Assembly: GCA_026770705.1 (NCBI GenBank)
Contig: JANJGN010000035.1
Coordinates: 7,130,001 to 7,194,000 of the forward strand
Source: Isurus oxyrinchus
Taxonomy: Eukaryota
Reading direction: 5' to 3'
DNA: 64,000 nt
The position numbers and the translations under genes were made by a program. The notes under the pieces were generated by a model. The model ran no database searches. It saw only the letters and a list, made by a program, of their open reading frames with translations, and was not told the DNA's origin. The stretch's first letter is position 1. Each line of letters starts with the position of its first letter. Shown here one piece after another: positions 389 through 61,349 of the stretch.

Positions 389-487
389 GTTCAGACAAAG
401 GGTCATGAAGACTCGAAACCTCAACCCTTTTCTTCTCCGCCGAAACTGCCAGACCTGCTGAGTTTTTCGAGGTAATTCTGTTTTAGC
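389..487 (+). mobile_element. Short (~100 bp) Penelope pLTR-derived element with degenerate hammerhead-like motif
   Basis: gttcagacaaagggtcatgaagactcgaaacctcaac...ctgccagacctgctgagtttttcgaggtaattctgtttt aligns by eye with the copies at 50471, 61054 and the 3' ends of the PLEs at about 34510 and 54427. Confidence 0.75.
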
Positions 488-599
488 TGAAACTGAAAGT
501 TGGTTATCAGGATGCTTGATATATCCGCAATAAGTAAGGTAAACTACTAGCACAGAAAGAGACATACTATAGATCTAATCTCCATCAAGTACAGATAAA

Positions 600-2780
600 A
601 ACATTGCAAACAAAGCTGAAAATAAACCAGTTTTACAGGATTTGTGAAAGATGGAGAGAATGGAGAACAGTGTTTAGTAATAAAATTAGAAATAGTTGTT
701 TATAATAAGATGTGTGACAGTAAATAATAACATAAATGCATTAGTGGGGTTGTTCAGAAGAGTGTTAACTTGAATAAGTAAATCTGGGTATTATGAATGA
801 TAAGAGTCACAAATCACTAATGAGAGTTGTCTACAGGCAACCCAAGGGCAGTTATATCTTTGGAAAGTACATTAGGCGAAAATATTGATGCTTATAGCAA
901 TGATTAATTCATGTCTGCGGACTAGAATAATCTTCATATTCAGCAAAATAATCACATTCAAAAGTGTTCTTTACAAGATGTGATGGTAGAATATTTTATT
1001 TCAGAATGCGTTATGGAACAGACTAGTCAAACCTAGATTCGATATTTATATTGGAAAGTAGATATAATGTAACCTAGTTACATTAGATAAACTATTTTGA
1101 AATGAGGAATACTTAATTTATCTTCTCATAAGTAAAATATCCTTTCGTAAAAATGATTATTAAGTAATTTATTTTTATGTTGATATTGAACACGATACAA
1201 CCCAATCACAACGAGAAACTAAGCAAAGCCAACTACATAGGTACAAGTAGAGAATTGGCTGAGGTTAATGCAATAAATGCACTGAAATCTGTCATTACAT
1301 AAACGGTGAAATACTGTTAAAGGAAAAATAAACAATCAAAGCATAAATGAAAGTAAATTTCATTGAGAAACTTAAACGCAGCCAATAATCATTCATCCAT
1401 GGCTTGCTCAGACACTTAAAGATAGTATTAAATCAAACAAAGAGGCGTCTACTGATGCAAAGATTAGTGACAAAGGAAGGGAGTTGTTAAAATAATTGTT
1501 GTTACCTTCGGAGCAGAGACAGGAATTAATTCATTATATATAAACAGTTAAAGTGTAATAGATAATGAAAAAAGTATATGCCCAAAATTCCAAGGCACGA
1601 TGAACAATAATGTGGCAAACTAAGCGAAATTGGTGCAGTGATTTTACACAGTATAGTAAGTTCTGCAAGGCACGATCAACTTGGTTCCTGAAAAAAACAA
1701 GCTACTCATTTGTTGGATGGCATCATTCATTACTAAACAATTGGAATCGGTATTTATGGGCTTCCTAAAACTATACCTAGAACATGAGAGTTTGGTCGGA
1801 TAAAATCAGGACGGTTTTAAGGTAGGCCAAATTTGTTTGTGCTTTTTGGAGTATTTTAGGGGTAGATAAAGCGGAATAGCTCATTGTAGTCTGGTTGGAA
1901 TACCAAAAAGGGATTCGATAATCAGCTATGAGAAATCAGTAATATGGCAGGAAAAAACTTGTGGAGATGTAATTGTGTCAAAGTATTAATTTGGACAACG
2001 GATTAGTTCAGGAGCAGAAAATAACCATTAGATTTAAATCCGGCGTTATCAAGTTTGCAGGCTGTTACTTGCACAGTGTCACAATCTTAAGTGTGTTGGT
2101 CTGTGTCAGGTTTTTAGATGCTCGGACATGGAATAAAGCAAAGTTGCATGCAAGCACAGCAAGCAATTTGGAAGGAATGTTTCAAGCTGCCGCTTATTTC
2201 AATGGGATGGGTGCATAGAAAGTTTTGCCAATATTATACAATGTTGTTGAGGCCAGAAGTGGAATTCTGTATAATTTTTGTCTCCATATTTCATGAGCGA
2301 TATATTCCCCTTGGTGACGTCTTGGAACAATTTCACTAGATTGCTCCATAGGAGGAATTGTTTGTCCGATGATTGGTACTGGAGTAAATGTGGCCCGTGG
2401 TCTCTGAAAGCTTTGAAGAATGAGAACAGCCCTAATTGAAAAATACAAAATGTTGCAGGTGCTAGACAGTAATCAGTGAGAGGTTCTGTCTTCACCGTCG
2501 TGTCGATATAACACGAGGGTGCATTCCCAGGATTAAGTAGTAATCGTTTAGAGCTGTGATGTGGAAACATTTCTCTACTCTAAGGGTGGTGATTCATTGA
2601 AATTCCATAACCCAAACAATTGCGGAAGTTACATTTTTTAACACATTGAAAGCTGAGAATGAACAATTGTGGGGCTGTCTGGAAAGCGGAAATATGTAGA
2701 TTTGTTGGTAAAGTGCAGTTGAAACCTCCGATCAACCTTGATTTCTCTGAGCAACTGAAATGACGCAATGAGTTCGTGCT
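600..2780 (+). mobile_element. Highly degenerate CR1 LINE ORF2 (endonuclease to RT to C-terminus)
   Basis: Residual CR1 signatures: ggtagataaag...ccaaaaagggattcgata (VD...FQKAFD), attaagtttgcag-like KFADD region, and ttttgtctccatattt...tttcactagattg (FWSPY...FTRL). No long ORF. Confidence 0.55.
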
Positions 2781-10639: not shown

Positions 10640-13600
10640 ATTACCGGAAGATGAGCAGTCAAAAGATGACTTCAATTTCTCAACCACAATTTCCTAATTA
10701 CTACTTACCATTTTGCACTATGTTATTATATGATAAATTGCCGTATTCACGTGATAATAAGCCCAAGATTTTGGCAGCAATGGAATAATTTTCTCCCGAG
10801 GATGCACTTGTCGAATCTTCCTTACAACTTAATCCTTTGCTCATGCACCTGCAGTTATGTTACTTAGTCCAGCCACATACATTATTTATAAGTTAAATGG
10901 TTGTAAATAATGAACTCCATTTAAACAGTCAAACATTCCAGAATTATTCCTGTGGTATAGACAGTGCAAACAAAATTTTCTGATGAATTGTTGGTGAAAT
11001 AATTATTCAGAAGTTGCATTGCCGGCACCAAACTCACTGTTTTCTTTTCAGAAGTGGAAAACTTTTATTGTTGAATTTTTAACTTATTTGAATAATATCG
11101 TACACTCTATTTAATGCCTGTTTCGTCTCCATGCAGCAATACAGCAGCTACGCACACATCACCTCCATCAATTGCCAAATTTAACTGATTGGCATGTTTC
11201 GAGGTAACTAAAACAGGTGCTGTTGTTAAAACATTTTAAAATTTTTGAGAGTATTTGGGAACACGAATGTCCAGTTGCATTGTTATTATTCTGTCAAGAG
11301 CTCAGTTAATAATGTAACCACGATGATAAAAATTGGCACGATCCTCCTGTCTAAAATATTCATACCAAGTAATTGTAAAGCTTCCCTTTTCTTTGAAGCC
11401 AACCATCCATCGGCTTGAATTTTACATCTCGGTTGGCCATCTAATCATGTCCGGCAGTTTAGCTCAAATAAGTGCCCTATCCTTTCTCAAATTATCTGTT
11501 AGCCGAGCAGCAACCAAATTAGCTTCTTGCAGACCAACAACTCGTTCTCACAGCTTCCGTAACTGTCCCTCAGATGTTTGACTGAATACCATCAGAGTGA
11601 TCAATGGGCACAGTACAGTGACGCTGTCCAATAATGAACTTATGCGCTAGTCTCTAGAAGTTGGCTGGTGAACTTTTCATACAAAATTAAATAACTTCAA
11701 CTGATATATTCAAACTGGCATTGCAAAAACCAAAATCTATGTTGGTCTATCTGATGACACTACTAACTAATATCCTCTCAGGTGACAATTTGTGGGATAA
11801 AGTGTGATGGTCCCACGTTCTCTAAGCAATGTTCCAGAAGTGGAATGCGAAATGAATTCATGTTTGCCACTGTGATTACTTTTCAATATTCTACAAACAG
11901 TCTTTATGATCCATGTTGCTTTGGTGCCACCACAATGGTCGAACTCAAATTTCAAAAAGGGTCAAAGGTGTTGTTTTGAAGAATGAATTCAATTTACTTC
12001 TCTAGATGCGATAGCTTCACTCGATTAAATCTATATTTGTCTTGCCTGAACGACACCAAATCACCTACATATACAATAAGTGGACCTAAATTTGTTTCCC
12101 ATGCTTATTCCTACACATGGATTTGTGTGTTTTCAACAACTTCTACAAATCACTGTGTAATTTTTCTGGAAAGTAACTCAATATTACATTTAAAGTTATA
12201 AGCATCCCCACATTATCAAAATTGATTAGAGGAAAGCCTATGTCAGGAACATTTATTTGTACACCGCCTCCTTATTTACCACCACTATGACCTTATGGTG
12301 ATCATTTTCGCTGTAAAATAGATTTTTAGCATATTAGCATGACAGACCTTTTGCTTCATTCTTCTATCTTGAGTCTTTGTTAAATAGTTCGCTTCACTAA
12401 TCTTCTTCTCAATCTTTTAATGTCTACTAATCATTGCATTTAATGGTTCACCCAAAACTCATAATAAAACGTACACAGCTTGACACACGGCAAAACTCTG
12501 TGCTTTGGCTCTATTTTCTGCCTTGGTCTTCATTCCCTGCTGTGATGTATTGAAATGTTTCTTGGGTAACTCACAAGCCTGGTTTAGTCTTTTGGTGAAA
12601 TTTGATAATGCATCCAAGAGTGTGTTTTCTGAATAAGCTGTTTAATATAACCGCTTTAATTTCGGTCCTTTAGGTTTAACTCTATCAACTTCAGCGTCAT
12701 TATCCTCCATTCCATTTTCCTTTCAATCTTATCAAAGATAGTATTGATAATTGTACATCAGTTTCTTTCCACTGCCTTGCAGATTCCTTCTTCTGTCTCG
12801 ATTGATGGCATTGTAGTCGTGTATATTGGTAGAGGAGGATCAGAAGTTATCCCCGTTATCAATGATTAAGGAGCCTAGTGCAGCAGTGGCAAATATAAGG
12901 CTGAACTATTCGAAACAACATTCCTCCAACAGTCCGGAGTGGATGCTCCAACTCAGCCATTCTCAGGACGTGCCAAGCATCAGAGATGCCAGTCTTCAGC
13001 CATTTCGGTCCACTCCATGTGATATCAAGAAACAGCTGATGGCAACGGATGATCCATAGGCCATGAACTCTGTCAATATTCCGACATTAGTAGTGAGGAG
13101 TAGTGATCCAGGACTTGCCGGACCTCTAATCAAGCTGTTCCAGTGGCTCTATACACTGGCATCTAGCCAGCTATGTGGAAAATTGCACAGTTTTGTCCTG
13201 TGCCAAAAAATGAGGAGAAATCCAACCGAGCAAAATCCCCCCATCAGTCCACTCTCGATCATCAGTAAATTACTGGAAGTGTTCATCAACAGTGCTACCA
13301 AAATGCAATTTTTTGACGATAATCTGCACACTGATGCAAAGTTTCTAGTCCACGAGGGCCACTCAGCTTCTGATTCAATACAGACTTGTTTCAAACATGG
13401 GCAAAAGAGCTGAACTCCCGATGTGAGGTGCGAGTGACTGTCCTTGACATCACACCCAATATTTGACCGAGTGAGGCATCAAAGAGACCGAGTAAAACAG
13501 GATACAATTGGAATCTGTGCGTCAATCACCGCGGTTGGAGTCATACCTAGCACAAGGGAAGATGTTTGTTGTCTTTGGAATTCTGTCACCTCAGCTCCAG

Positions 13601-15120
13601 GACTTCGTCAGGGTAGTGCCTTAATTCGAACCATCTCCAGCTGCTTCATCAATGATCTTCCTTCCATCAAAAGTATAGAAGTGGGCATGTTCGTTAATGA
13701 TTGCACAGTCTTCAGCACCATTCACAACTGCACAGATACTGAGGATTTGCATGTCCAAATGCAGCAAGTACGGTATAACATCTGGGATTTGGCTGACAGG
13801 TGGCAAGTAAGGTTTGCACCATACACGAATCAGGTAATGATCATCTCCAAGCAGACATGACACCACCATTACCCCTTGATGTTCAATTGCACGAACATCA
13901 CTGAATCCTCCACTATCAGCTCCCTGGGGTTACTATTCACCTGAAACTGAACTGCACCTGCAATGTAAATACTTTGGCTGCAAGAGCACATTAGAGGCTA
14001 GGATCTGTGCGACGATTAGCTGACCTCCTGATTTTTCAAAGCCTGTCCATCATCCAAAATGCAGACGTGAGCAATGTGATGGAATACTTCCCGCTTGACT
14101 GGATGAGTGAAGCTTCTATAACATTGAAGAAACTGGACATCTTCCAGGGCACAACAATCCGCTTGATAGGCCCCAGATCCACAAGCATCCTTTCTCTCCA
14201 ACACAGACCTACATTAGCAGCAGTGTGCACCATCCACAGGACTTCACCCATGCGCCTTAGACAGCACATTCTAAACCCAGGACCACTACCACCTTGAAGG
14301 ACAAGGGCATCAGTTAAATGGTAATTCCACCTCCTGGAAGTTCCCCTCGAATTCACTCGCCTTCCTGTCATGGAATTTTCTCGCCGTTCGTTCCCTGTCC
14401 CTGGGTCAAAATCCTAGAACTCCCTTCCTAACAGCAAGGTGTCTTGTACCTATACCACATGGAATACAGCGCTCAAGGAGGTAGCTCACCACCACCTTCT
14501 CAAGGACAACTAGTGATAGGCAATAAATGCTGTCACAGCCAGCAAAGCCCACATCACGTGAATGAATAATATATATATATATGCATTTAGTGGAATATTA
14601 TGCACATTAATCTCTGCATGACAATAGGTTCCCTATTTTAATGCCCTTATCGAACTGCCCATGCTACATTGTTTGACTATTTCAAAGTAAATATAAGTCT
14701 GTCCAGGCCTTTTTTAATATTCAATAATTAAGGACTGTATGATTAGGAACCAACTCATATGTACTCAAAATAGCTTGTTTTACTGCCTCATAATACATAG
14801 ATACCCCTTCTGCTAGTGTAAGCATCTACCTCATGAACTCCAACTACCTTTCTGGACTGTAAACGCAATGCCCATATTTAATTTCGATATGGCATCCACT
14901 TCCATATCTTCTGAAACTATTTCTTTTTAAAAAGCGCCACTGCATTCCTTTCCTCAAACTCCAGAACAGTCTGCAGATTTTTAACAGTTTCCCAACGAGT
15001 TTTCATATTCATAGCGGTCACTTTGTTCTCAGAACCTCGCTCAGCTTTCTAGTGTCACTTAACCTCAACTTCTGGTATGTCTTTTTAAACTGTCAATTTA
15101 GTCAATCTTGAAAGTTTATA
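10640..15120 (-). mobile_element. Degenerate Gmr1-type Gypsy element, copy 2, split by a LINE at 12826-14570
   Basis: gag YEAVKQAILSTYELVP..PGQTYIYFE (~14800-14680), integrase C-terminus IEKKISEANYLTKTQDRRMKQKVCHANMLKIYF (~12415-12317), RT MKSSPANF*RL..VFSQT..LQEANL (~11680-11515), RNase H linker VLTTAPVL..LAIDGGDV (~11230-11150). Confidence 0.7.
12826..14570 (+). mobile_element. 5'-truncated LINE family B (non-LTR retrotransposon RT plus 3' UTR), frameshifted
   Basis: ORF remnants PPISPLSIISKLLE, PIFDRVRH, RQGSALIRTISSCFINDLP, GMFVNDCTVF (YADD box) and DRWQVRFAP. Ends aataaatgctgtcacagccagcaaagcccacatcacgtgaatgaataa followed by a TA run. Confidence 0.85.
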
Positions 15121-16142: not shown

Positions 16143-17831
16143 AGATTCAGGAGAAACTTAAAGAAGATCTCCGACAACAATGTGAGATGATGAAGTTGAA
16201 AAGTGGGGCACTGCCATATATTCGCTTAGTTAATGATAAATGCACAACTTTATTAATCATTACGTGGCCTTTAAGTAATTTTGTTGCAACAAATGAAAAT
16301 TATGCAATAAGTAGAAATCCGAATATGTCGGAAAGGGGGAGTACACGTGACCGCCTGTGGGGAGTTAAGATTGATGAATTATTCAGAAGCAATTGCAATT
16401 AAAAAATCCTGTCAGGAACGTTGGTAGTAACAGCTTATGCCGGAATCGGTAAAACCACTATGGTCAAGGAGATTGCCCTGGACTGGGAAGCAGGAAAAAC
16501 ATGTGAACAGTTCAACTTTGTGCTTCATTTCAAATTCTGTGACTTGAGTGTCGTAAAAGAGAAGACAAGTCTGAAACAGCTGCTGCTACATTCATATAGT
16601 CATTTAAACAATAACCTTGCGTGTGTTTGGAAAGACCCTGAGTGAATATTTTTTTTATTGGACGGCTTAAATGAATTTCACGAGAATATAGACTTTCGTG
16701 ACAACAGGAGGAAGTTGTACGCTGAAGATCAATTTTTGGATCCCGAGTGTCAGGTTGATGTGTCAGATATTATTCGGAGTCTTGTCCAGGGGAAATTACT
16801 AAAGGGCTGTACAGTGTTGATCACGAGCCGTCCGGCTGCCCTAGAGTCACTGAATGAATCTCATGTCAATGTTTGGGCTGAAATTCTGGGATTGCTATCT
16901 CATGAAAAACGAATATATTGTCGGAGCCTTTGCAGAGACGGGATACTGCCGGAAACTACTTTCTAATACCTTGAAAAGAACGAGACCCTAAACAACCTGT
17001 GTTATATTCCCTGGTACTCTTCTTTCACCCGTTCCGCATTGTCAACTGCTGTTATTGAAGGACACAGAATTGAAAACCAACATCCCGAAAGTATCACCAA
17101 GCTGCTTTGCTATTTTGTGACCAGGCAGCCACAAAAAAATGCTGGTATTACTGAAAACTGGCAAGATAATTTGCTCAAGCTAGGCCAAATGGCCTATGAG
17201 GGAATGCGGAACGGCAGCTGATATTTTATGATGAGTCTTTTCACCATCACAGACTGCAACCTTCACCGTTCGTATCCAAGTTCATGACATCAATTCTGCA
17301 CGAAGACAATTCAGCCGAGGCTAGGATAGTTTTTTTTTTACCAAGAGTTTCTCACTGCTCTCTCATTGTTCCTGCATTGCAGCGCAGTGGAAGTGAAATG
17401 TGGCATAAAAGAAGCATCCAGCAAATGCGTTGTCTATTTTGAAATGTTCCTCCAGTTTCTAGTTGGCTTTACCTCACCATATTCAATGCGAGAGCTAAGT
17501 AATTGTCAATATCTGACCAGGTGCAATACTGGCTGATGGAAGAGATTAAAGAAAGTGTTGAAAAAGATGGCGGCCACGATACGAACAAAAAAAAGTCTAG
17601 ATTTTTCCTAACCTATGAATGCAGAAAGATAGAGCTAACTGAATGTCTGTGTGCTTGTATAAAGAAGATTGATTTTTCTAGTTTAGAACTTTTTCAGGTG
17701 GATTGCATGATACTAGCAACAGTCTTAAATTCGTGTGACATTTTAGAATAAATTGATCTTTCTAAGTGTTCAATACAAAGCGAAGGAATGCAGAGATTGT
17801 CAGGGGTCGTACATAAATGCAAAATCCTAAG
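16143..17831 (+). pseudogene. NLR pseudogene 1, NACHT/HD1/WHD/HD2 plus first LRR exon
   Basis: Acceptor gatttgcag. Walker A AYAGIGKTTMV, F.F.DL, Walker B FFLLDGLNE, sensor-1 VLITSRP, LCYIPWY, LLKLGQMAYEG, QEFLTAL, FEMFLQFLVG, IDLSKCSIQSEG. Stops at 16400, 16643, 16964 and 17749. Frameshifts near 17210, 17340 and 17500. Donor reads AG|GCATTT. Confidence 0.92.
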
Positions 17832-19450: not shown

Positions 19451-20419
19451 TTGAAAGGTGTCCTCAACCTTGATTGTTCGTCCGGTGGGTAATCAGTCCG
19501 ATTGTTCAAAATCCGTCATTCCAAAGTAAAGGTTGAAACAAGTTAATTTGCTGCTTAGAATAAACGGAACACTTGATTAAAAATAACCTGCATGGAATAA
19601 AGGGGGCCAAAATGAGAATTGCTGAGCTGAAAGGGGGTCTGAGAGATTAACAGTGGATCTGGACAGGCAGGATGTTGTGAAACTCACACAGGTAATCGGG
19701 GGAGAATAAAAGAGTCCGAACATGAAATGAGAGATTGAGAGAACAGAGTATTTTGTGGGAGACTCAAAGAGTATGTGTAAGGTTCAGAAAAAGAGGGAAA
19801 ATTAGCAGGGGGTGTTGCTCAGGGAGATCGCGAAACAGTGAGTATGGAAATTCCTATTAGATATAGCGTGGGAAATGGAGAGAAAGTCAGGAGCAGAATG
19901 AGCTGGAGAGTTCTATTTTTGGAAGTCGGCTTCAATGGTTCCAGAGTAAATAAATCGTCCAATTTCTCGAGTCAATACTGCAGATGGACATACACTTTTA
20001 TTTTTCCTTAGAGTCTCTAAGTTAGAGCAGGATTTTCAGTCCGAGCTAAATGGACATTGCTTTGAGTTTTCAATATCGACGCTACCTGCTTGCTACTTAA
20101 TTCTTGAATCTGTAAAGTGAATCAATGGCACCTGGCTGCATCACACAAAGCAATTGAAAGGCACATAAGAAGCTGTCTCTGATTCTGTTTGCTAAGTGCT
20201 ATTTGAAATGAACTCTTTCCGCATGTCATATTATTACAGCACAAGGACATAACCACCTACCCAATTGCTTCAGGTTTATTACACCACTACCCCCCTCCTC
20301 AACTGCTCCCTCCCGATACAAACACACACATCAAACTACCGTCTTTAATCTTGCCAACTATTTCGAGGTTAAATTCGAACTTGCCGATTTTTTTCCCTTT
20401 CATTCAGGGATTTTTTTTT

Positions 20420-21430
20420 TCATTCATGCGATTTGGCTCACTGGCTGGGCCAGCAATTATGACCCATCCCTAATTGCCCTTGAAAACATGGTGGCGAGTT
20501 GATTTTTCGATCCACTGCACTCGGTGTGGTGTAGATACATTTACAGTACTATGTGGGATGGCGTTATAGGATTTTCACCCAGCGACAGTGAAGAAATGAC
20601 GATATATCTACAAAGAAGGATGGTAAGTTACTTGGAGGGGAACTTGATGGTGTACCCATGCGTCTTCTGCCCGTGTATTGTTCGATGTCAGTGGCCGTGT
20701 ATTTGAAAGGCCCTGCTTAAGGAACATTTTGTGAATTCCTGCAAAGCCTCCTGTAGATGCTATACACTGCTGCCTCTATCATTCCGTGGTGGAGGAATTG
20801 AATACTTCTGGATGGCTATCAAGTGGGCATGTTTGTTCTCGATGATGTCCAGCTTCTTGTTGTTGGAGCTGCAGCTATCCGAACAAAGGAAAACATTCCT
20901 TCCCATTCCTGACTTGCGTCTCCTAAATGGTAGACAGAATGTCTGGAGGTCAGTTATTCACCCTTGACTCCTAGCCTCTGGCCTGCCATTTGTGAACACA
21001 TAATTTATATGGATACTGGAGTTCATTTTGGGCATGTCCCCAGGTTGTTGATGGTGGGAGAATCCACGTTAGTATTGCCAATGAGTATCAAGGTGCGCTG
21101 GTTAGCATATCAGTTGTTGAAAGAGATGATTGACTGTTATTTGTGTGGCACAAATATTACTTAGCACTTGTCAGCCTAAGCAATGATACTGGCGAGGCCG
21201 CCATGCTTTTGGATAATCATTTTTTCAATATCTGAGGAGTCACACAGAGTGCTGAACATTCTGTTACCATCAGTGACCATAAGCAGTTATTACCTTAGGA
21301 TAGAAGGAAGGTCATTACTAAGAGCTAAAGATGGTGGTCCTAGGACACAGCCCTGAGTAGCTCCTGCTGCATTGTCCTGAAATTAAGTTCATTGACCACG
21401 GACCAACACAACCTCCTTCCTTTTTGCTAG
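20420..21430 (-). mobile_element. LINE family B 3' fragment (intronic)
   Basis: Starts ttcattcatgcgatttgg..gctgggccagcaattat, the reverse complement of the family 3' end. Contains gaaggaaggtcattact (reverse of INDLPS). Confidence 0.7.
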
Positions 21431-32239: not shown

Positions 32240-33410
32240 GAACAAGGAAGATGGCACTGGCTACGGCACTGACAATATCCTGGCACTAGTGTTGAATACA
32301 TGTTCTGCAGAACTTGCCACGCTGCGAGCCAAGGTTCTTCCAGTGCAGCTACAACACTGTCATCTACAACATTACATGGACAATTGCCTCATATGTTCTG
32401 TACAGCAGAAGGAGGACACATCAAAACCGGCCAATTAACACCAGGCCACTCTCCATCATCACGGAAAGACCTCGGCAATGCTATTATTGCCTGTTTCACC
32501 AAGGACCTTCCTTCCATGATAAGTTCAAAAGTGAGCATGTTCGCTGATATTTGAACAATGTTAGCAGCAATCTTCACTTCTCAGATACTGAAGGTGTACG
32601 TTACCAATTTTATAAAGAACTGGGATTTTCCATGCTGGAACAGACGAATGGCATTAATATTCACGCCACACAAGCATCAGGAATAGACAATCTTCAATAA
32701 CAGAGCATCCAGATATCGTGCCTAGATGTTGAATTTCATTACTATTACTGAACCCCTCAAAATCTACATTTTGAAGGTTACCATTGACCAAAAACTGAAC
32801 TGGACTAGCTACTTAAATACTTTGGCTACTGCAGTAGGTCAGAGGTCAGGGATACTGTGACGGGTAGCCCAACCCATGACTCCCAAAAGACGGTCCCCCC
32901 CTACTGGGCACATGCAGGGGCATGATGGAATGCTCCCCAAATGCCTGGACAAGTGCGGCTTCTAAAATATTCAATAACATTGACACCTCCCAGGACAATG
33001 CAGCCTGCTTGATTAGCACCACACCGATAACGATTCACTCCTTCCACCACTCCATCCTCTACCATATAAAGGATGCACTGCAGGAATTCACCGAGTGTTC
33101 TTCGCCAGCACCTTTCAATCCCACGACCATCATAATTTGCAAGGACAAGAGCAATAAATAGATGAGAACACCACGACCTCGAAGATCACCTCCAATTCAC
33201 CCAGCATTCCAAATTGGAAATATACCTTCATTCCATCAAGGTCGTTTGGTCAAAAAAAACTGTAAATGCCTTCCTTACAGCACGCTGGGTGTACCTGCAC
33301 GAAATCGGCCGCAGCTCTTCAAGGAATCCACTCAGCCTCACACTCCCAAGGCCAACTAGGTGAGCGTAATAAATGCTGGCCGTACAGCGAAGCTCACATC
33401 ACATGAATAA
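32240..33410 (+). mobile_element. LINE family B fragment (internally deleted RT plus 3' UTR)
   Basis: ACFTKDLPSMISSKVSMFADI and MMECSPNAWTSAA, ending taataaatgctggccgtacagcgaagctcacatcacatgaataaa. Confidence 0.8.
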
Positions 33411-33582
33411 ATATGCAAACACACGAACACACAAACAGAAACACGTATAAAAATAAATATTTTCCTTATATAACCATGTTGCACATTTTGGTATGTGCGA
33501 CACATTCTGGCAAAAGTAGTATGTTGTCATTAGCATGAACATATGAATAGTATTCACGAAATGGAAACAATAATCCTTGATA

Positions 33583-34577
33583 AATGCAAAAAAAAACTGT
33601 GGATGCTGGAAATCCAAAAAAAGAAAACAAAAACAAAAACACCTGGAAAAACTCAGCATGTTTGACAGCATCTGTGAAGAGGAACACAGTTAACCTTTCG
33701 AGTCCGCATGATTCTCCTCAGTGTCCAAGAGCCCAGCAATCCTTTCAAGTGAAAGAGCATTTTACCTGCTTCCCTCAATTCAGTCTATTGCATTCGCTGC
33801 TCCGAATGCACTTCCCTCTACACTGAGGAGATCAAACGCAGACTCACCGACCACTTTTTGGAACACTTTCAGCCTGTCCGCAATCATGGCCTATGCCTCC
33901 CTGTCGCTGGCCATTTGAACACACCATGCTGCTCTCATTTCCACATGTCCGTCTTTGGACTACTGCATTGATGCAAAGAAGCTCAACGCAAATTGGAGCA
34001 ACAGCACCTCATCTTCTGGGTAAGCACTTTAAAGCCTTGCGGACTGAATATTGAGTTCACCAATTTTCGGTCCTGAAATCTCTCTTCCATCCCCACCCTT
34101 TTTCCGGTCCACCTTTTTTCCCAATAATTTATATAGATTTTTATTTTCCCACCTATTTAAATGATTTTTAAATGTGTTTCATTCCCTTGTTTTATCTCTA
34201 TGTTTTAGTGTATTTCGATCCCTTACCCGCACCACACCCCCCCCCCCCCCCCCCCCACCCCCGCCATCCCCAGTTCCACTCCGGCTGTCTGCACCTTGCT
34301 CGTCCTGCTTTCTAACCTTAGTTTCAGCTATTTTCACATTCCTTAGATAATATCACCACCTTCCTCACCTCTTTTCCCTTTTGGCTATGACATCTTTTTG
34401 TTATCTCCACCTATCACTGGCCCTCTATCCAGCTGTACCAGTTCCATTCCTCCCCCAGCACCCTCCCTCCTTAAACCAGCTTATATTTCTCCTTTTTTCT
34501 ATTTTTGCTTAGTTCTACTGAAGAGTCAAAGTGACTCGACACGTTAACTGTTTTCCTTTCCGCAGATGCTGTCAGAG
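33583..34577 (+). mobile_element. 5'-truncated Penelope-like element with inverted pLTR, GIY-YIG endonuclease remnant and 3' pLTR
   Basis: 33583-33721 is an inverted copy of the terminal repeat at about 34510-34577. QSFQVKEHFTC / VYCIRCSEC..YTEEIKRRL.DHFLEH is a GIY-YIG remnant. Confidence 0.85.
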
Positions 34578-34789
34578 AATAATCTTCCATGTGATATCTT
34601 TCAAATTACTTTTTGAAATCCTTCCACACTTAAACTATTATCATTAATTAAACTTCCCTTTGCTCAAGGGGCCGCACGTCCTGACAAGTGTATTATTTTA
34701 CTCGTTGTCTGTCCTCCCTTTTTTCCATCTAATTATATTCCGAAGTTATAGCCCATCTGTTTTCTGACGATGAAAGAACCTTTGTTATA

Positions 34790-40584: not shown

Positions 40585-40589
<5 letters not shown>

Positions 40590-40754
40590 TATATTTGCAT
40601 TTTTTCCAAACAGCTGGCACAGAAAGATCGTTCTAATATTATTCTGCCTTGCTGTACGATTCAATGATTTATATGAATTGCTAAACGTTAAATTTCCGAA
40701 GACTAATGAAGAGAAGCAATATCAAGAAATTACCTGCAGGTCTGATAGCAACTG

Positions 40755-40935
40755 TGGAGCGGAAGACAGAGTCCATGTTTCAATTCCGTATGACGTTTCA
40801 TCAGAAAGAATGATACAGACTCAAAACGTTGACTCTGTCTTCCAGTCCATTAGATGCTGTCAGAACTGGTGAGCTTTTTCCGGTGACTTTTGTTTTCGTT
40901 TCACATTTGCATCATTTGCAGTATTTGGCTTATAT
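40755..40935. mobile_element. Head-to-head Penelope pLTR remnants
   Basis: gacagagtccatgtttcaattccgtatgacgtttcatcagaa (inverted copy) is followed by gactcaaaacgttgactctgtc..gatgctgtcagaactggtgagc..tttgcagtattt. Confidence 0.7.
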
Positions 40936-41989: not shown

Positions 41990-43260
41990 AGAAAGGGAGG
42001 TAAAGTTTGGTAGGAATTTTGAGGGAATGAATCGATCTGAACTTGGAGAGGCAGCAGGTTATCAAAGCCAGTTAGCAGAGTTTTGTTAAGGGGAAGCCAT
42101 TTCTGCCCAATTTGATTGAATTTTTCGAAGGGGTGACCAGTTGTGTGCATGATGGCAATGCATTTGACGTAGTCCACTTGGACTTCAGCAAAGCTTTTGA
42201 TAAGGCTCTGTATGAGACACTGATAAGTAACGTAAGAACCCATTGGATCCAAGGCAATTTTGCAAATTGGATGAAGAATTGCCTGAGTGGCAGGAAGTGG
42301 AAGGCGATTGTCGATGGTTGTTTATGTGACTGGAAGCGTGTGGGCTATGTGGTTCTTGCTGATTTCCGTATTGTCTCCATTGCTGTTTGTTGCAAATATA
42401 TAATGATTTAGACTTGAATGTATGAGGGTTATTACTTAAGTGCGCCAATGACATGAAAATTGGTGGCGTTGTAAATATTGAGTTGCAGGATACAGGAGGT
42501 TGTAGAGGGGCTGGTCAGTTGGGCTGATCAGTGCTAAATGGAATTTAAACCGGATTAGCTTCAGGTTATGCATTTAGGCAGGACAAACAAGGCTGGCGAT
42601 TACACGTTGAAGGGTAGGATCCTGGAAAATACAGATGGTCAGTGGGAGATTGGTGTATATATACTCCATTCTCCTAAGGAAGCGGCAGAAGTAAATAAGT
42701 TGGGTAAGAAGCCAAATGGGACGTTTGCATTTGTTAGCCGAGGTAGAGGATATAAAAGCAGTGATGTTATGCTGGAACTGAATAAAACGTTGGTTAGGTG
42801 ACAGCTCGAGTATTCCCTGCATTTCTGGAATAGGCATTATAGGAAGGATATGATGACACTGGAGAGAGTGAAGAGGAGATTTTCCAGGATATTGCCTCGG
42901 CTGGAGAGTGTTAGTTCTGAGGAGACATTGGATGGACTGCACTTATTTTCCCTGGAGAAGAGCAGTTTCTAGTGGGATGTCATTGAGCTCTATAAAGTTA
43001 TGAGGGAAATACACGGAGTAGACTAGAAGGAACCTTTCCCTTGGCAGAACGGTTGAACACGAGGAGGGATAGAAATACGGTGATTGGGTGGAGGTTTAGT
43101 GGATCAATGAGGAAGAATTTGTTTTCATCCAGAGTGTGGTAGCAATCTGAAATTCACTGACTGAAAGGGTGGTACATTCAGAGGCCCTCATAACATTGAA
43201 GAAACATCTTGATCTGCACTTGTGATGCAATGGCATATTAGGTCATGGACCTATAACTGG
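41990..43260 (+). mobile_element. CR1 LINE RT plus 3' end
   Basis: LIEFFEGVT..DVVHLDFSKAFDKA, WMKNCLSGRK, MHLGRTNK and MLELNKTLVR. Confidence 0.9.
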
Positions 43261-45929: not shown

Positions 45930-46680
45930 CCAACCTGTTTGCTGACTAACTGTATATATTCAGATTACCACTTATGTGTTTGCAGAACCAATTTCTAGGA
46001 GACAGCACCTCTCTTATCTCGAACCCACCCAGGATTACAGCTGGGCATACAGTTTTCCTCAGACTGTTGTTCCCGCCGCATCCTGGGACCCATACTGAGT
46101 GTCTTACCCCACTAGATGTAAAACGTGGATCTTTCTCCAGCCTCACCAAATCACCCTATTGCATTAAGTACTTTTCCACAGTTTCCTTTCATTCTTCACC
46201 ACCTCGACAGCTTAACACGGAGCCTTTCCTTTCCTTCAGTTTAGGAACATCACCCCTAAGGACTTTGTGATTCCAACGTCATTCATATATCCTCCTCCTC
46301 ATCCCGTACTTCTGATCAAACATTTCTTCTTACTCAGTTCCTGCCGTGTATTGAACAAACATTCTGACCTCCCCAAATCTGATACTAAAAGTTATGTTAT
46401 CAGCAAATTACTGAGTATCTCACTCTTAGGCCCTCAACTGAATGAAATTCGTGTTCTGCACGCTGCTGAACTACTCCCATGTCACGCTCATCTCCCTTCT
46501 CACTTCTTTGGGTATTAGTCATGCCTGCGTTCAATGGATAATTTCAACCACTCCACCATTCTCCCATAACTCACCCCACCCTCTGACCTCTTAGATGCTT
46601 TGGTATTTTCACTGAGAACAGTTGGTGTGTCCTCTGGCACATTAATTTATTTCCTCATCTCACACACTCCAAACATTTCC
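45930..46680 (+). mobile_element. Possible L2-type LINE endonuclease remnant
   Basis: Pyrimidine-rich, with ctaggagacagcacctct..gctgggcatacagttttcc (L.GD...PPGY.F-like), atatatcctcctcct (YRPP-like) and gataatttcaac (GDFN-like). Confidence 0.35.
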
Positions 46681-46947
46681 TCCTGAGCTTGCTGCAATCC
46701 GTTCCCTCTGGTCCAACCACAACTCTATTATCATATTTGCCAATAAGGGTCTTGTTGTTTGTGGCATACTGACGTGAACCTTGCAAAGGCTGAGTGAAAC
46801 GTCTCAGATACTTCCTTGCAAAACGCTCTCACAGCCAGCCCCCAGCTCGCACCCCTCCGAAATGCGACCCCACCACCGAACACCATGATATTATTTCCTG
46901 GCCTGTCACTGGCCTCTCCTACTCTGGAAATCTTCCCTCCACAGCTT

Positions 46948-49900: not shown

Positions 49901-51249
49901 ATGTAGTATTTGGGCATTTGGAAAGTCAAATGCAATCCATCAAAGCCAGTATGGTTTAATGAAGAGTAAATCGCGTTTGATAGTTGTCTGTCTTGTTGCA
50001 GTTATTTGAAGATGTGGCAGGCGTAGTGGATAATTTGGTTCCTGTACATGTTGTATATTTGGATTTCCAGAAGGACTTTTATAAGCTGCCGCACAAAAGA
50101 TTAATACAGAGGATTGGTTCACTCAGAGTTAGGGTAATATTTCAGCTTAGATAGCCAGCAGAAATCAGAGAAGTGGGTTAAATGGGTATCTTTAAGCATG
50201 GCAAGCTGTAACTAGAGGAGTGGCATCGGTTTGCCCCTTGGGCCACAACTATTTACAATCTATATGAATGACTTGAATTCAGAGATCTATGGCACTATGT
50301 ACACATTTCCAGATAACGCCAAATTTGGTGGGCAAGTTAGCTCAAATGGAGAAATAATAAAATTTTCAAATGGATATGGACAGTTTCGGTGAATGGACCA
50401 AAATTTGGCAGATTAATTTTAACGTGGATAAGAGTAGGTTATCAATTTTGGACAGAACAATTATAACGCGTTCAACTGTTCTGTTGAAGGGACATGAGGA
50501 CTCAAAACATCAACTATTTTCTTTTCGCCGATGCTGCCAGACCTGCTGAGTGTTTCCAGGTAATTCTGTTTTTGTTTTCAACTATAAGGCGGGTTATTGA
50601 AATGTAGATAACCGTCAGAATGCTTCTGTGCAGAGGGATCTGGGTCTCCTCTTGCATTAATCGCTGACAGATAGTAGGCAGGTACAGCATTTAATAAGGG
50701 AGCCACATTGAATTTTGGTCTTTAATGCTAATGCAATAGATTCGAAAAGTAAGGAAGTCCTGTTGAAACATTACTGGATGTTGGTGAGGCCGCACCTGGA
50801 GCAATCTGCTTCGTTTTGGTCCCCTATCTGAATGATTTATTTGCATTGGAGGCGGTTCAGGGGCGGTTTACTAGGTTGATTCCGGAGATGCAGGGCGGGT
50901 CCTATGAGGAGATATAGAGCAGTTTAGGCCTATAATCGCTAGAGTTTGGAAGGATGAGATAGGTGTAATTGAGGTGTATTAGATGTTAAAGTGGATAGGC
51001 AAAGTGGAAGTGGAGCGGATGTTTATCCTTTTCTGACATTCTAGAAGATGTTGCCATATGTATGCGAGGGCGCTGAACAAAGTTAAGGTAGGGATAGACA
51101 GAATTTTAAATCGTGATGGGTTGAAAGATTAGAGGGATTTTTCGGAAAATTGGAGTTGATGCAGAAATTATATTCGCCATGATCGTACTGATTCGGGGGG
51201 CAGGCCCGCAATGCTGAATTGCCTACACCTGCTCCTCGTTCTTATGTTC
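46948..51249 (+). mobile_element. Near full-length CR1 LINE (5' UTR, ORF1 zinc finger/zipper plus SGNH esterase, ORF2 APE-RT, cttatgtt tail), decayed
   Basis: ORF1: C..CSKC..RVDELEYE, RNVVVFGDS and FHSDGLHFNGAG. ORF2: YDFVVIAETWL..FQKDRQEEKEGNV, KSPGSNCLHPSVLKE, YLDFQKDF and LVRPHLE. Ends cctgctcctcgttcttatgttc. Confidence 0.9.
50471..50578 (+). mobile_element. Short pLTR/hammerhead-like element inserted in the CR1 RT region
   Basis: gttctgttgaagggacatgaggactcaaaacatcaact..gtaattctgtttttgtttt flanked by caattataacgcg (50458-50470) and caactataaggcg (50579-50591). Confidence 0.8.
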
Positions 51250-53499
51250 CCTTAACCTCATTGTTTCGTAACCTCCGACTGTGCACAGCTATTTACTTCC
51301 CAAACCTGCAAACAAGGCAGCCCCAGCAGACACATTATGTCGACCTGTGTTTGCCCAACAGAACTTTGTTGTTTGTAATTTGGGTCCTTTCTCTCTCCCC
51401 TTGCCCCGTGTCTCCCTACCAATGTTCACGACTGCTGTAATGCCCTGCGACTATCGACAGTTTCCAGTTCCATGACCCTAACCAGCTTCTGAATGCTATG
51501 GACTTCCTATCCATCTAGAATCTCATGCCTCACCATATTCCTGTGAGCTATCTACACTTATTACTTGAACAGAAGCCTAATAAATTCCCAACCACCTCCA
51601 GTCTCTCCAACTGACTGAATTTGTAGTCTCACACAACAAAATCTCCTTTAACTAGACACATTGTTCCAAACAAAATGTGCAGCTTTGGGTGCATGGACCC
51701 CAGGTACATGTTTTTTTCATTATGCGGTGCATGGAAAATTCATTGATCCAGTTCTACTCAGGGTCCTTATTCGGTACATCGATGGCTGTATCAGTTCTAT
51801 GTTCTCTTCTGGACTGGGAATCATTTGTCGATTTTGCTTCCAATTTAGACACCCCCATAAGCATATTGCGAATTTTCCGACGCTCCCTTCCGGTCTTTGA
51901 CTGCTTTGCCTGCACTTCCGTTCATAGGCTGTCTACCAATAATCACAACAACGCGCCAACTCCTCCAGCTACCTCCACTACAGCTCCATACACGCTGCTT
52001 CCCGTAAGGACTCCAGCCCATTCTTTCAGTTTCTCCATCTCCATTGTGTTTGTTTCAAATATGCCACTTACCAAACCAGCGCTTCTGAAATATCTTCATT
52101 TTTCCTGCACAGTTGGCTCGCCACAAAATTGTCGACGTGGACTTCAACCGTTTCTGACCCATCTCCCATGTGTCTGCCCTCACCCCATCCAATTCCTTCC
52201 AGAAGCATGATAGGATCACCCTTGGCCTCACTTTTCATGCCACCAGCCTCCACATTCAATGCGGCTGCCTCCACAATTTGATGAAACACCATAATGTTGC
52301 CGTGACCAAACTCATCTTCCCCTCACTCTGCCCCTTACTCCCTTTAAGTATTCGGGAGGGACGGTTCCCTCCGTGGCAGCCTGGTGCACTCTCCGATTAA
52401 CGCTTAGTATGAATTCCCACGGCATATTTCCATGCAATCGCAGAAGTTTCATCGCCTGCCACATTACGTCCTCCCTCCTCAACATCCAAGGCCCCAAACA
52501 TTAATTTCAGGTGGAGCAGTGATGCAATTCCACCGGTCTAAATTTGGTCTTCTCTATGCAATGATCGTAATTATGCTTCCCCGGTAATTGTGTGACTAAA
52601 TGCAGATTTGCTGACTGCTTCGTGGAACACCATGACTCAGGCTGCAAGCATTACCTTTGCCTTTTTTTCCTTCCCATTTCAACACCCAATCTTTCTGTCA
52701 TACCCACGCACCCGCCCTTGGTTTGCTGCAATGTGCCAGTAATGCCCACAGCAAACTAGTGGAACAGCACCTCAGCTTAGAAGGAGCCAGGTTACAGCAT
52801 TTAGCGTTTCCAATCGTGTTCAATAACTTCAAACAATGAAACATTTTCTTCTTGTTTACCTTCTTCCCCTTTAATAAATGTTTAGATTGTTTAAAATTAT
52901 TTGTACTTATTTATGTATTGATTTATTATCTCCCTCATTTCCTCAACGACCACCTTCACCCAACGCATGATTGTGCATACCCTTGTTCTGCTATTTACTC
53001 ATTCTGCTATTTTATACTTGTGTCACTGTTAGCCTTTCTTCCATCTTCACCACTGTCATTGACACTCCTTTTGCCTTGGCCCACGATATCATTGTCAATA
53101 TGTATTTAAAGCCCACTTATCCCTCAACATATCTATTGCTCTAACTACTCCACTGCTGTAATGCAGTAAGAATTCCATCGAATTACTGCCTCTCTTGAAG
53201 CTCTCAAGAGGAGGCACGCGTGCTCGAAACATTAGTTGTGTTTCCCTCTCCACATATTTTGTCAGACCTGCTGGGTTTTTTCCCCCAGTTTCTGTTTGTA
53301 TCTCAGATACCCAGCATGCACAACAGTTGTATTTCTTCGACGAATTCAAATATTGAATAATTAGCACCATATCATAAAATTAATGAATTATAAGTACATT
53401 GTTCTCCGAGAAGGGCAGAGGATTTTTACAACTGGATTGGGGATGTGGATAAGTAAAAAGATGGATTTTGCATCGTCCATTCCATTGTTGGTTTATTTC

Positions 53500-54522
53500 T
53501 CAACAGCAGATCCCAAACAAGAGGTTTATAACCACCCCCTACCCTCACGGGGCGGCATTCTGTAGGGATCATTCCCTCGGGGACACCCAAGTGCACTCCT
53601 CCATCAACCCCTACACCTCAACACCCACCTTTGTCACCTCCCCATGCCCACGCAAAAGATGCAACACCTGCCCCTTTCACTTCCTCTCTCCGCATCGTCC
53701 AACGGCCAAACAGTCCTTTCAAGTGAAGCAGCATTTCACTTGCATTTCCCCAAACTTAGTCTACTACATTCGTTGCCCCCAATGCGGTCTCCTGCAGAGA
53801 CCAAATGTAAACTTGGCGACCACTTTGCAGAACACCTGTGGTCTGCCCGCAAGCATAACGCAAACCGCCCTGTTGCTTACCATTTTAACACTCCACCCTG
53901 CTCTCTTGCCCACATGTCTGTCCTTTCCTTGCTGCCTTGTTCCAGTGAAGACATCGCAAATTGGAGGAACAGAGCCTCTTCTTCTGACTAGGCACTTTAT
54001 AGCCTTCTGGACTGAATATTGAATTCAACTACTTTAGATCTTGACCTCCTCCCTCCATCTCCATGCGCTTTCTCTTTCTTCCCTCTTCCTTTAGTTTTTT
54101 TTCCCCTAATAATTTATATAGATTTTCTTTTCCCACCTATTTCCATTATTTTTAAATCTTTTATGCCCCCACCCCCAATAGAGCTATACCTTGAGTGCCC
54201 TGCCATCCATTCGTAATGAGTATCTTCGTTTAGATAATATCACCAACTTCAAGAACCTTTGTGTTCTTTTGTTCTTTTGTCTGTGACACCTTTTGATTAT
54301 CTGCTCCTATCACTGTCTGCTTGTCCCTACAACTACAAGAGCCCCCTCCACTTCTCTCCCCGCAACCAAACTCCCACCCCCAACTTTAACCAGCTTATAT
54401 TTCACCCCTCTCCTTGGATTCACCCAATTTTGTGGAAGGGTCCTGAGGATCGGAAATGTGAACTTCTTTCTTGTGCGCCGATGCTGCCAGACCTGCTGAG
54501 TTTTTCCAGATAATTCTGTTCT
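53500..54522 (+). mobile_element. 5'-truncated Penelope-like element (GIY-YIG plus 3' pLTR)
   Basis: PCPRKRCNTCPF..KQSFQVKQHFTCISPNLVYYIRCPQCGLL / ETKCKLGDHFAEHL..PVAYHFN, with a terminal repeat at 54427-54522. Confidence 0.9.
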
Positions 54523-54859
54523 TGAAGTGGTTTGTAAATATTTGTGAGTCAACAAGGTTTCATGGAAAAGAGCAAAATAAATCATTCGAGAAATGATTAT
54601 AAGCTGATTCTCATCATGTAATTATAGTTATATGTTATGATGCCTGGACTTACTTCCAGATGTTATGTCCTTCTGTAGGGATTTGATTGTTTTTCAAACT
54701 GAAAAAAAAAAACATAAAAAACAAACAATTCAGTATGGAATCTACTTTTCTATCCATTATGTGGAGCGTGAGCATTAGTTTCAAAAATAAATGCGTAACA
54801 TATTTAATTCCCAATTACCTTTCAGTCAAATATTACGAACGTCTCTGGCTATGCGAATA

Positions 54860-57894: not shown

Positions 57895-57981
57895 TCCAAT
57901 CTTTGTATTTTGCAATCCTTTTTCTTCAGAGCTCTGGAAATCCATTTCAAGCCCAAATCTCCCAATTCATTATAATTGAGT
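57895..57981 (-). pseudogene. NLR pseudogene 2, 87-nt LRR exon
   Basis: LNYNELGDLGLKWISRALKKKDCKIQRLE. Donor ga|gtgagt, acceptor reads tttAA instead of tttAG. Confidence 0.9.
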
Positions 57982-58429: not shown

Positions 58430-59250
58430 GTCTCCCTAATTTATAATGACTAGTTGGTAATGAAACTTCATGTTGAAAAATTGCAATCCACAAACTGCTG
58501 TGGAAATGCGACGTCCAGGATTTCTGGGCCAGGAACAGTGAAGAAACATTATTTTGTTCCAAGCTAGGAGGCTCAGTGGCTTAGATGAGAACTTGCAGTT
58601 TATGGTTCTCAAGGTGTTTGCTTCTTTGCTTCTTAATAGAACAGATAATTTGTCTAGGCGGTGCTGTTGAAAAATGGATGGCGATTTGTTGCATTGCAAA
58701 TTTTGATTGGAACGCACTAATACCACTCTGCCTAAGCCGTGTAGGGAACGGATGTTCCTCATAAAGCCTCCAAATTGTGCTTCATATTGTTATTCAGGCT
58801 TTGGGAACTCAGAATTTGAGTCACACTCTACAAACTGCCAGCATGTGGCTCTTGTTGTAATACTATTCTTATATCACTCGCCAACTTAGGCATATTGTCA
58901 AATGTGCTCTCACGTGATCAAGACTTGGAATTCAGTGATTGAAAATGGTTGAACATTAAAATGACGTTAATTCCTCCTCTGATTAGAAGAAATTACTGTT
59001 TGTAATTTATTTAGCATAAGTTACTAGCCAAGTATGTGCTCAAGCTTGAATGTTCTCCAGGCTCCGCATGAATAGGGTTTGATCATTACCTCAGAAGTAA
59101 CTAATGTGCTGAACACTGCACAGCCAGGAGATGACAACCAGGATTCCGCTGCTATCTTTAAGGCATGCACATTGATGAAGGCGGCCATATGTTTGGACTT
59201 AGGAATGCAGTCTAGGGAAATCCTGCAGTGAACATCTGGCGCTGACATAA
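58430..59250 (-). mobile_element. LINE family B fragments (intronic)
   Basis: ataattgctgcccatccgtctccctaatt..ccaggatttctgggccaggaacagtgaagaaac and gtgctgaacactgcacagcca..attgatgaagg. Confidence 0.55.
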
Positions 59251-59644
59251 ATGGTGTTCTAAGTTTAAAACTTTATGTTACACATGCAACCAATGTTGCA
59301 ACTATTTCCCCTTGCTTGCCATGGTATTGGAACTGAATAAATTTTATCTCTTTATGCAAGCACCGGATGATGCCAAAAGTGCACTGTATTCGGATAATGA
59401 CTTTACAATATCTGAACTGAACTAATTATTTAATTTAAAAATATGATAGCCTTGTCATTCTCTACCCGAACATGGATGATATTTTTTTAACATTTCCATT
59501 TCCGGCACTGAGATTATAACAGAACGGATGATTAAATTGGTTCAAAATAGAGGATAGGCATTTTTTTAGTTTTTGCTATTGTCGTTCCAAATTCTAGGAA
59601 TATATTTCTAGCTTATATTGCCATTTAACCATTTTGGGAATTAC

Positions 59645-61349
59645 CTGAGTATTTTATAATTTGGGTAGCAAGAGTTCAAGCTGACGGATGCCTGTTGCAT
59701 TCATGAGTGCTTCTTCCAAGCGATATTCAATACCACAGGCAGCGAGGTTCAGCTGTTCAATTCGTTCTAAGTTCATCAGTACGCTTGACAGCACAACCCA
59801 GTCAGAATAGTTAAGAGTATACTCTGTCAATTGTACAGCCTTATTTGGTGTTAATTCGGCTTTCACCAGTTTTGGGTTGCCGAATTAAAAGTAAAATAAT
59901 GCAACATGTCCAGGAGGCTTCTGTGGGTTTCCCAGTCTTCTAAATTCCGAATATGACGTTCGACACCTTCATTGAGCCAATCAGATACGCACGAAGGTGT
60001 CCCAGCGTTAACCTCGGCCATTTTCCACTCAAGCTGATTTGTTGAAATTCCTGATGAGAGGCCAACAATGAAAGGTGACATTATCTTAGAATCTGTCGTT
60101 CTTGCTCCAGTCACTGAGCGATCGCATCAATTCTTTTTCTTGTGCTACCTGAATTTTCATAATTGCAGCTATAAAGTTTTATAAAATGGAGAGAGTGAAT
60201 GTGTACACAAAAGTTCCCCGACATTTGCCTTGAATGTCTTTCATTAAAAACAGCGATAACACTGGAAATTCTAGTTTGTGGTGAAAGAGTTGTGACCTCT
60301 GAAAAACAAAGCTTTGGTTACAAATTCCCCTGAAGGCCATGTCACCCAATGTCAGCAAGACATCGGTGGCCCATTGCTCTAAAAGACTGTTGTAGTAAGC
60401 ACGGAACACCTGTGTGCTGGTCATGCGGAACATAGACCTACTCTTTGTCCGTTGTGTCAAGTGTGGCGCTAATAATGAAGAGAGGACAGCACAGTACTAT
60501 GGGTTACAGCACATGCTGTTCAGCATTTTATTTGGTCACCTCTGCAGCGAACTGCTCACCTCGATATCTTTGGTGAAAGTATGTTTTCAATTGTTCAGCG
60601 TTAAATCCCAGGAATGCGACTCTTAGATTTTTTTTTCTTGCTTTTTCAAGTAAGTCCAGTTTCCACGGCCTTGTTGTCAGTACTGAATAGACCCTTACTA
60701 ACGCTCCTTGCATTAGGCAGTGCACGATCTCTGATACCTCACAACACCACTCGCGATCTAAACAATGATTTTGCTGATCGCCGCTTCTGTGGACATCGCT
60801 GAATTCGATTGTTTTCTCAAAGAGGTCAAAATCTTCAAATACAAATACTAATTTGGACAGTTCCTGCCACAGATGACCCAGAACATTTTCTAAATATGGG
60901 TATGAGTCCCGAATCAAGCTAGTTAGTTTGTTCTGGCCGTTGTTAAATTTAATTGTGAAATCTTTAAATGGAACACCAATGTGAACTGTTCGTAGATTTT
61001 CCCCCATTGCCAATTCACGGATCATCTTGTCTATCAGGTTACTTTTCCCAATGGTTCTGTGGAAGGTTCATGAGGACACGAAACGTCAACTCTGTTCTTC
61101 TCCACTGATGCTGCCAGATCTCTTGAGCTTTTCCAGGTAATTATGTTTTTATTTTACTTTTCCCAATGCCTACCACGCCAATTACCACCGTGACTTCAGT
61201 CCGCCTTCCTTTGCAGCAAACTAAAATCATCATTTTTGTGTAATTATTATTCAGGAGAGATGTCTTGCGGAATACTACTCCCCCAGTGATATTGGCTGAA
61301 AGCCTTTCGGACTGTTCTCGAACATTTTCTCTGTGCTTAAATTATATCT
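59645..61349 (-). pseudogene. NLR pseudogene 2, NACHT plus first LRR exon
   Basis: Acceptor ttttatttgtaag. FKHRENVREQSERL, Walker A GVVGIGKS (interrupted), LVFVFEDFDLF, VLTTRP, LGFNAEQ, LLTLGDMAFRG, VYTFT, PFIVGLSS, LLDMLHYF, LNLAACGI. Donor ctcag|gtaa. Confidence 0.92.
61054..61153 (+). mobile_element. 100-bp pLTR/hammerhead-like element inserted in the Walker A codons of NLR pseudogene 2
   Basis: Perfect 15-bp target-site duplication ttacttttcccaatg at 61039-61053 and 61154-61168. Confidence 0.92.

Follow-up and report, generated by a model that had tools for sequence, protein, structure and literature searches.

Hammerhead-bearing units of the shark Isurus oxyrinchus as ends of an endonuclease-bearing Penelope-like element, with a hot spot of 5' ends at stem I

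Introduction

Endonuclease-bearing (EN+) Penelope-like elements (PLEs) of the Neptune/Nematis type encode, within one open reading frame (ORF), a reverse transcriptase (RT) plus a GIY-YIG endonuclease at the C terminus, the two separated by a Cys-rich linker. Their insertions typically comprise partial tandem pseudo-long terminal repeats (pLTRs), an inverted 5'-truncated arm, a one-sided tail of 30-40 nt and target-site duplications (TSDs) (PMC8557442, PMC3846280). A CX2-5CxxC linker defines Neptune/Nematis (PMC8557442), and solo pLTRs are mentioned for Adineta within the same literature (PMC8557442/PMC3846280). Here, we examine a family of hammerhead-bearing units of about 100 bp in Isurus oxyrinchus, starting from a stretch of 64,000 nucleotides (GenBank assembly GCA_026770705.1, contig JANJGN010000035.1, positions 7,130,001 to 7,194,000 of the forward strand; hereafter the window) and extending to the whole genome. 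The shark family is alike in each of these respects, solos included. It differs from those EN+ PLEs in two features absent from the descriptions compared: a very high copy number, at some 450,000 ends by extrapolation, and a quantified hot spot of 5' ends at stem I of the hammerhead. The cited papers enter this comparison as excerpts, and the likenesses and differences given throughout hold for those excerpts.

The minimal type I hammerheads of metazoan PLEs (PMC4209133) offer the closest match to the motif itself. They, too, have a short helix I, an extra nucleotide between A9 and 10.1, a G10.1-C11.1 pair (here in most subfamilies) and palindromic positions 15.2-16.2, and they occur mostly as dispersed single motifs tied to truncated PLEs. 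The shark motif departs from them in helix II, with 5 bp rather than 7-8, and in an A-to-U change at core position 6 (A6U; A6 and U6 denote the two forms) that is fixed in younger subfamilies, whereas the excerpted account names U3-A8 as the only core variant. Natural change at position 6 does have a precedent in the A6C hammerhead of phage Bcep176 (PMC3088659, PMC7151607), although there the base is C, not U, and the ribozyme is single and monomeric, whereas the shark motif belongs to a family of tens of thousands of copies. The natural A6C variant has a k_obs below 0.1/min (PMC3088659), and an engineered A6C ribozyme is >10,000-fold slower in Mg2+ than in Mn2+ (PMC7151607).

Two further systems bear on how such units might arise. 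For the Anolis Poseidon element PAc, two internal RT start sites match the tail, insertion is independent of hammerhead cleavage, uncleaved RNA is the template, and the hammerhead is protein-assisted (PMC11167929). The shark element would resemble PAc in the two internal starts that set the tail and in its uncleaved template; PAc, however, is a member of the Poseidon clade whose ORF starts inside the hammerhead (PMC11167929), while the shark ORF starts ~170 nt downstream. Animal non-LTR retrozymes (bioRxiv 10.64898/2026.07.22.740005) share with the shark units a type I hammerhead, pLTR-related sequence and dispersed monomers, but their defining feature is a tandem repeat in which every unit has a hammerhead, and such arrays are essentially absent here.

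The architecture, the tail and the minimal hammerheads of the shark family are already known, and no new class of mobile element is involved. With a probability of roughly 0.8, we consider the units to be the pLTR-plus-tail ends of an autonomous EN+ PLE whose own target-primed reverse transcription probably yields the solo copies as short by-products.

Results

The units are ends of an intact Penelope-like element

Positions are given on the element, with 0 at the G of the stem I 5' arm; positions 3-9 are hammerhead C3-A9, and the predicted cut site lies between +33 and +34. A 35-nt hammerhead motif with positions 6 and 7 left free has 73,232 exact matches in the 4.98-Gb genome, and a 35-nt tail motif has 104,210; reversed controls gave 0 in both cases. 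The consensus that the first-pass annotation had drawn by eye from the window is, by these counts, the dominant genomic form. An independent profile, run on 120 evenly spaced 10-kb stretches (1.2 Mb), returned 111 matches, one of them a duplicate, and its reversed control, run on the first 60 stretches, returned 0. Extrapolation from this evenly spaced sample yields the figure of ~450,000 ends genome-wide.

The units are the pLTR and tail of an EN+ PLE. An intact element (locus L121) consists of a 3,314-nt monomer with a 918-aa ORF and carries the unit both before and after the ORF—in order, an inverted 5' arm, a direct pLTR with the unit, the ORF, the 3' untranslated region (UTR), the unit again, and a tail to ~+135—with a 15-bp repeat, read from the sequence, on either side. 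Pfam places RVT_1 (E 1.9e-5) and GIY-YIG (E 0.004) in the ORF, both under the curated cut-off. Between RT and endonuclease lies C-x4-C-x2-C, which falls within the CX2-5CxxC pattern, and by this linker the element appears to fit Neptune/Nematis. The family combines the hallmarks of EN+ PLEs: a single ORF with RT and C-terminal GIY-YIG domains, partial tandem or inverted pLTRs, a one-sided tail of 30-40 nt, and TSDs. The earlier proposal that PLE machinery inserts these units, with TSDs, is supported.

Insertion anatomy was read from the first 100 listed copies of the tail motif, consecutive on contig C1 and chosen blind to the 5' end. Among them, 45 extend to -39 or beyond and 37 form inverted arms; a script called 14 solo, two of which prove to be composites when inspected, and the remaining 4 run into other sequence of the element. 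The 3' ends are bimodal, lying ~100 and ~137 nt past the stem I G, and one long-tail arm is paired with one short-tail arm in 32 of 33 inverted events. TSDs of at least 8 bases, ranging from 8 to 16 bp, flank 16/18 inverted events and 7/14 solos, versus 3/182 mismatched flank pairs. By eye, the same minor variant is often common to paired arms, an indication that each event had a single donor.

5' ends cluster at stem I and not at the cut site

The clustering of 5' ends is real, lies ~34 nt upstream of the cut, and is independent of the core. In the 100-copy sample, 33 of 88 copies at risk end within -10..+10 (peak versus flanks, p 1e-6), compared with none of 97 at +33..+35, around the cut site. 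Base-level inspection of the youngest subfamily (70 of 71 listed copies) places 24 ends in -4..+2 and 6 in -5..-27, a rate ratio of 8.5, while 38 copies read through; two further ends at +4/+5 are apparently deletions. The first-pass annotation had noticed a common start at stem I in three stand-alone copies, and these larger samples extend that observation to the family.

Neither the state of the core nor the type of insertion alters the pattern. Copies in the evenly spaced sample that are at most 15% diverged (98 of 111; 45 A6, 53 U6) show a heap at -5..+5 in A6 and U6 families alike (11/45 and 13/53), and few ends within 2 nt of the cut site (2/45 A6, 1/53 U6). The hot spot is also common to solos and to inverted arms of ordinary PLE insertions. 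A slight heap at +22..+30 in the oldest family was rejected as blur from 10-25% divergence and family misassignment.

Two side observations concern the same region. Directly before stem I (-20..0), all seven subfamily consensuses have a pyrimidine tract followed by AG, weaker in the youngest; it might serve as an initiator or as a splice acceptor. At G000:C1:500849-501897 (L095, L096), a pLTR with ~1 kb of the ORF start is followed by a jump to a second unit from ~-3 or slightly upstream. Both pLTR parts start at the hot spot, as if RT had run off and then switched template.

Hammerhead anatomy and the A6U change

Judged from the sequence, the units have the minimal type I anatomy of PLE pLTRs that had been read in them at first pass, with stems I and II, the extra nucleotide after A9 and a palindromic stem III. 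Across 19 aligned copies, 90.6% of cells are paired and stem I is nearly invariant, while stem II includes one pair with two-sided change and one with three pair types. The stem II covariation score of 0.175 was reached in 4 of 500 shuffles, a count that is not to be read as a probability. An Rfam scan of the window lent the hammerhead assignment no support, with no match at E<=5, and folding z-scores for 7 copies were not significant (-1.36 to +0.46). Monomer and cofold minimum free energies do not favour a dimer hammerhead, and folding energy was therefore dropped as evidence.

The T in place of A in the core, earlier suspected of being a lineage variant, is indeed one. Position 6 is A in only 108 of the 73,232 exact young motifs, a departure of the young family from CUGANGA, whereas older families keep that core (3,261 matches); an intermediate form, with U6 alongside the older stem II, loop and GUU triplet, accounts for 4,684. 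In the evenly spaced sample, four A6 families have median divergences of 0.128, 0.116, 0.095 and 0.057, and four U6 families have medians of 0.027, 0.042, 0.018 and 0.014 (n from 4 to 31), with the middle two U6 families in either order. A6U is a genuine, fixed lineage trait that marks all younger subfamilies, and the simplest reading, which we infer, would be one A6U change followed by several amplification waves. The largest recent waves (>70,000 identical motifs) belong to the U6 lineage.

Consensus changes that followed A6U are unevenly placed: five of six fall at the 7 free positions (N7, loop II and N17; p 0.0014), and the sixth turns A-U into G-U in stem II with pairing kept. This test is partly circular, and suggestive only, because the families were defined on those positions and partly fetched with core-fixing patterns. 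A Fisher test of 29 constrained versus 70 downstream positions gave p 0.055.

Four copies carry C at position 6 (L165:1955-1993, L049:8804-8842, L009:1565-1603 and L140:2859-2897), and may form a small subfamily or have arisen by repeated T-to-C change. Four RNA-type contig sets, each from a different organism, list no other letter at position 6, a weak hint that U6 is shared. Our literature search returned no A6U activity figures for such a context, no fixed A6U PLE hammerhead and no description of this family; the survey of Lunse, Weinberg and Breaker and the supplements of papers lay outside the search and may bear on it.

A proposed target-primed origin and its alternatives

The by-product origin can be set out as a series of steps. 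The endonuclease would cut the target with a stagger, and RT would prime internally on the RNA at either of two tail sites, for which the anole PLE supplies an in vitro precedent. Promoter or Inr-like sequence has been reported in pLTRs (PMC2377424, PMC3846280), and if the RNA starts from a promoter in the pLTR, a little upstream of the hammerhead near -4..-1, RT would run off it after 100-140 nt. Priming from one nicked strand would leave a solo unit and priming from both strands a head-to-head pair, while longer copies would stem from read-through RNAs. With uncleaved RNA as the template, the boundaries would not be set by self-cleavage. A6U, fixed in the master lineage, is predicted to bring a strong drop in cleavage, and the fold would likely still be constrained, in the role either of a weak ribozyme assisted by protein or of a cis element.

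Several points weigh against this account. The 100-copy sample comes from 3.8 Mb at the start of a single contig, arms that belong to the same event cannot be counted as independent, and half of the solos lack a TSD. Raw genome-wide loss is near flat, at 14.7% over +4..-1 (63,658 to 54,276) versus 12.6% over -8..-13 (48,342 to 42,249), and the peak emerges only once point mutation is corrected for, with small samples. Truncations make up 12 of 14 sampled losses in +4..-1 versus 2 of 5 in the -8..-13 window, which contains a CpG, and the corrected contrast is ~2.5-fold with a wide error. The edge is also 7 nt wide and unsharp, with many ends at +6..+30. Finally, the transcription start is one that we infer, and the RNA sets are assembled contigs, blind to RNA ends.

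The heap could have another cause even if the units are by-products, namely stalling or template switching of RT at RNA structure, or processing at a splice acceptor. We regard such a cause as unlikely, although it has something to commend it: an AG stands at -1/0 after a pyrimidine-rich tract in 7/7 subfamily consensuses examined, the intron of D. virilis Penelope ends at the 5' end of helix I (PMC4209133), and ends spread over -4..+30. Since RT reaches the hammerhead from its 3' side, however, stalling should heap ends at +25..+37, where few lie, and 13 of the 24 heap ends retain 1-4 nt upstream of the G, which a splice acceptor would have removed with the intron. The four RNA-type contig sets, moreover, hold no GT-AG joint (a weak point), and a splice-acceptor origin was ranked below a transcription start in the pLTR. 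Far less probable again is the non-autonomous, ribozyme-bounded element envisaged by the first-pass annotation, a retrozyme or short interspersed element (SINE) in which transcripts of the 100-140-nt unit are processed by its hammerhead and the unit multiplies as a lineage of its own by means of PLE proteins. Solos with TSDs and a common 5' start do exist, animal retrozymes are reported to be pLTR-derived, one chondrichthyan included (bioRxiv 10.64898/2026.07.22.740005), and in Adineta pLTR sequence is enough in cis for trans-mobilisation (PMC3846280); a solo with a retained internal promoter could re-transpose at a low rate. Yet against 104,210 exact tail motifs there are 3 head-to-tail junctions genome-wide (long-tail form, spacer up to 10 nt), and on that count membership among the non-LTR retrozymes, for which tandem hammerhead units are required, was rejected. 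The window holds no tandem array of the unit, and 5' ends in the 100-copy sample are absent from the cut site. The 12 solos come in equal numbers (6:6) from the two subfamilies that also supply attached copies, and 0/12 are nearer to another solo than to a PLE-attached copy; they show no SINE-like lineage of their own with private diagnostic changes, all at the low power of ~90 nt compared. The families that yield most young solos also have the non-canonical core.

Whichever way the 5' heap arises, the U6 motif itself invites two interpretations. At odds a little short of even, it is a dead relic, its other core positions kept by the short time elapsed or by overlap with a promoter or protein site. 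Changes at A6 cut activity in natural variants (PMC3088659, PMC7151607), cleavage is dispensable for insertion in vitro (PMC11167929), long invariant blocks occur in the downstream tail too, and the contrast between constrained and downstream positions reaches only p 0.055; the placement of post-A6U changes, five at free positions and a sixth that keeps its stem II pair, argues the other way, within the circularity noted above. We are more doubtful that the U6 motif is a selected one—an attenuated or protein-rescued ribozyme, or a non-cutting fold needed for transposition—maintained across at least four successive subfamilies with the other catalytic positions fixed.

Unit copies and neighbouring genes in the window

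A profile built from the window copies, with 0 matches at E<0.01 in the reversed window, finds the unit at all eight places given by the first-pass annotation and at a ninth on the + strand (40801-40902). The copies and the element fragments that carry them are as follows.

389..490, + strand: solo pLTR/short-tail unit of the young (U6) lineage by its tail, with a decayed core; 89% to element -1..+95
33579..33711, - strand: arm with the long tail, inverted, from a composite PLE insertion (element +137 to +14); its hammerhead is incomplete
33713..34618, + strand: direct arm of the same insertion, with the GIY-YIG end of the ORF, 3' UTR, hammerhead (motif at 34512-34548) and short tail; element -751..-282 at 77% and -67..+64 at 71%
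40705..40806, - strand: one side of a head-to-head pair; belongs to an older subfamily with the canonical (A6) core
40807..40926, + strand: partner arm of the head-to-head pair, overlooked at first pass
46006..46947, + strand: 5' portion of the ORF from a long PLE that is old and interrupted; 65% to the intact copy
50478..50576, + strand: solo unit with a U6 core, inside the 4.3-kb gap that interrupts the old PLE
51254..53317, + strand: remainder of the old long PLE, its 3' pLTR being the copy at 53200; element -1995..-423 at 66% and +23..+114 at 71%
53553..54524, + strand: 5'-truncated PLE with the Cys linker/GIY-YIG end, 3' UTR, hammerhead at 54427 and short tail; element -884..+97 at 81%
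61054..61153, + strand: solo 100-bp unit with a U6 core and a 15-bp TSD

All three solos begin at the G of stem I (389, 50478 and 61054), and at 34510, 53200 and 54427 the copy closes a longer Penelope fragment at its 3' end. TSDs had been claimed for two of the solos. That of the solo at 61054 is strong, an exact 15-bp duplication (61039-61053/61154-61168), while at 50478 a 7-bp repeat (50471-50477/50577-50583) abuts both junctions and is short for the family, which leaves a weak TSD; around 389..490 a TSD was sought and none was found. The canonical CTGAGGA once reported at 33721 proves to be a junction artefact. The minus-strand copy can be aligned to the element only from +14 on and is missing the stem I 5' arm, and the apparent core lies within the antisense of the adjoining ORF fragment, at the inversion junction.

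The solo at 61054 lies within a NACHT exon on the minus strand (60528-61335), where it has landed in the codons for Walker A (GIGKS); its TSD duplicates these codons, and the insertion breaks the reading frame of an NLR-like gene. A second NACHT-domain fragment lies at 16646-16966 on the + strand (Pfam E 1e-10), and the window may be part of an NLR-like gene cluster. Decayed RT-like fragments occur at 13060-14570, 20416-20645, 32491-33413, 34785-35850 and 42031-42965, and by eye have the look of CR1-type LINEs; Pfam, applied to one of them, did not confirm RT.

Significance

What part the hammerhead plays in PLE transposition is not settled. Because the shark family has dated versions of one motif, with A6 and with U6, a single cleavage assay can ask whether catalysis matters. 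The 5' hot spot and the strict pairing of long with short tails would be traces, seen in large genomic samples, of internal priming that starts from both strands of the target. Should the U6 motif prove to have been selected, the family would amount to a natural experiment on what PLE hammerheads are for.

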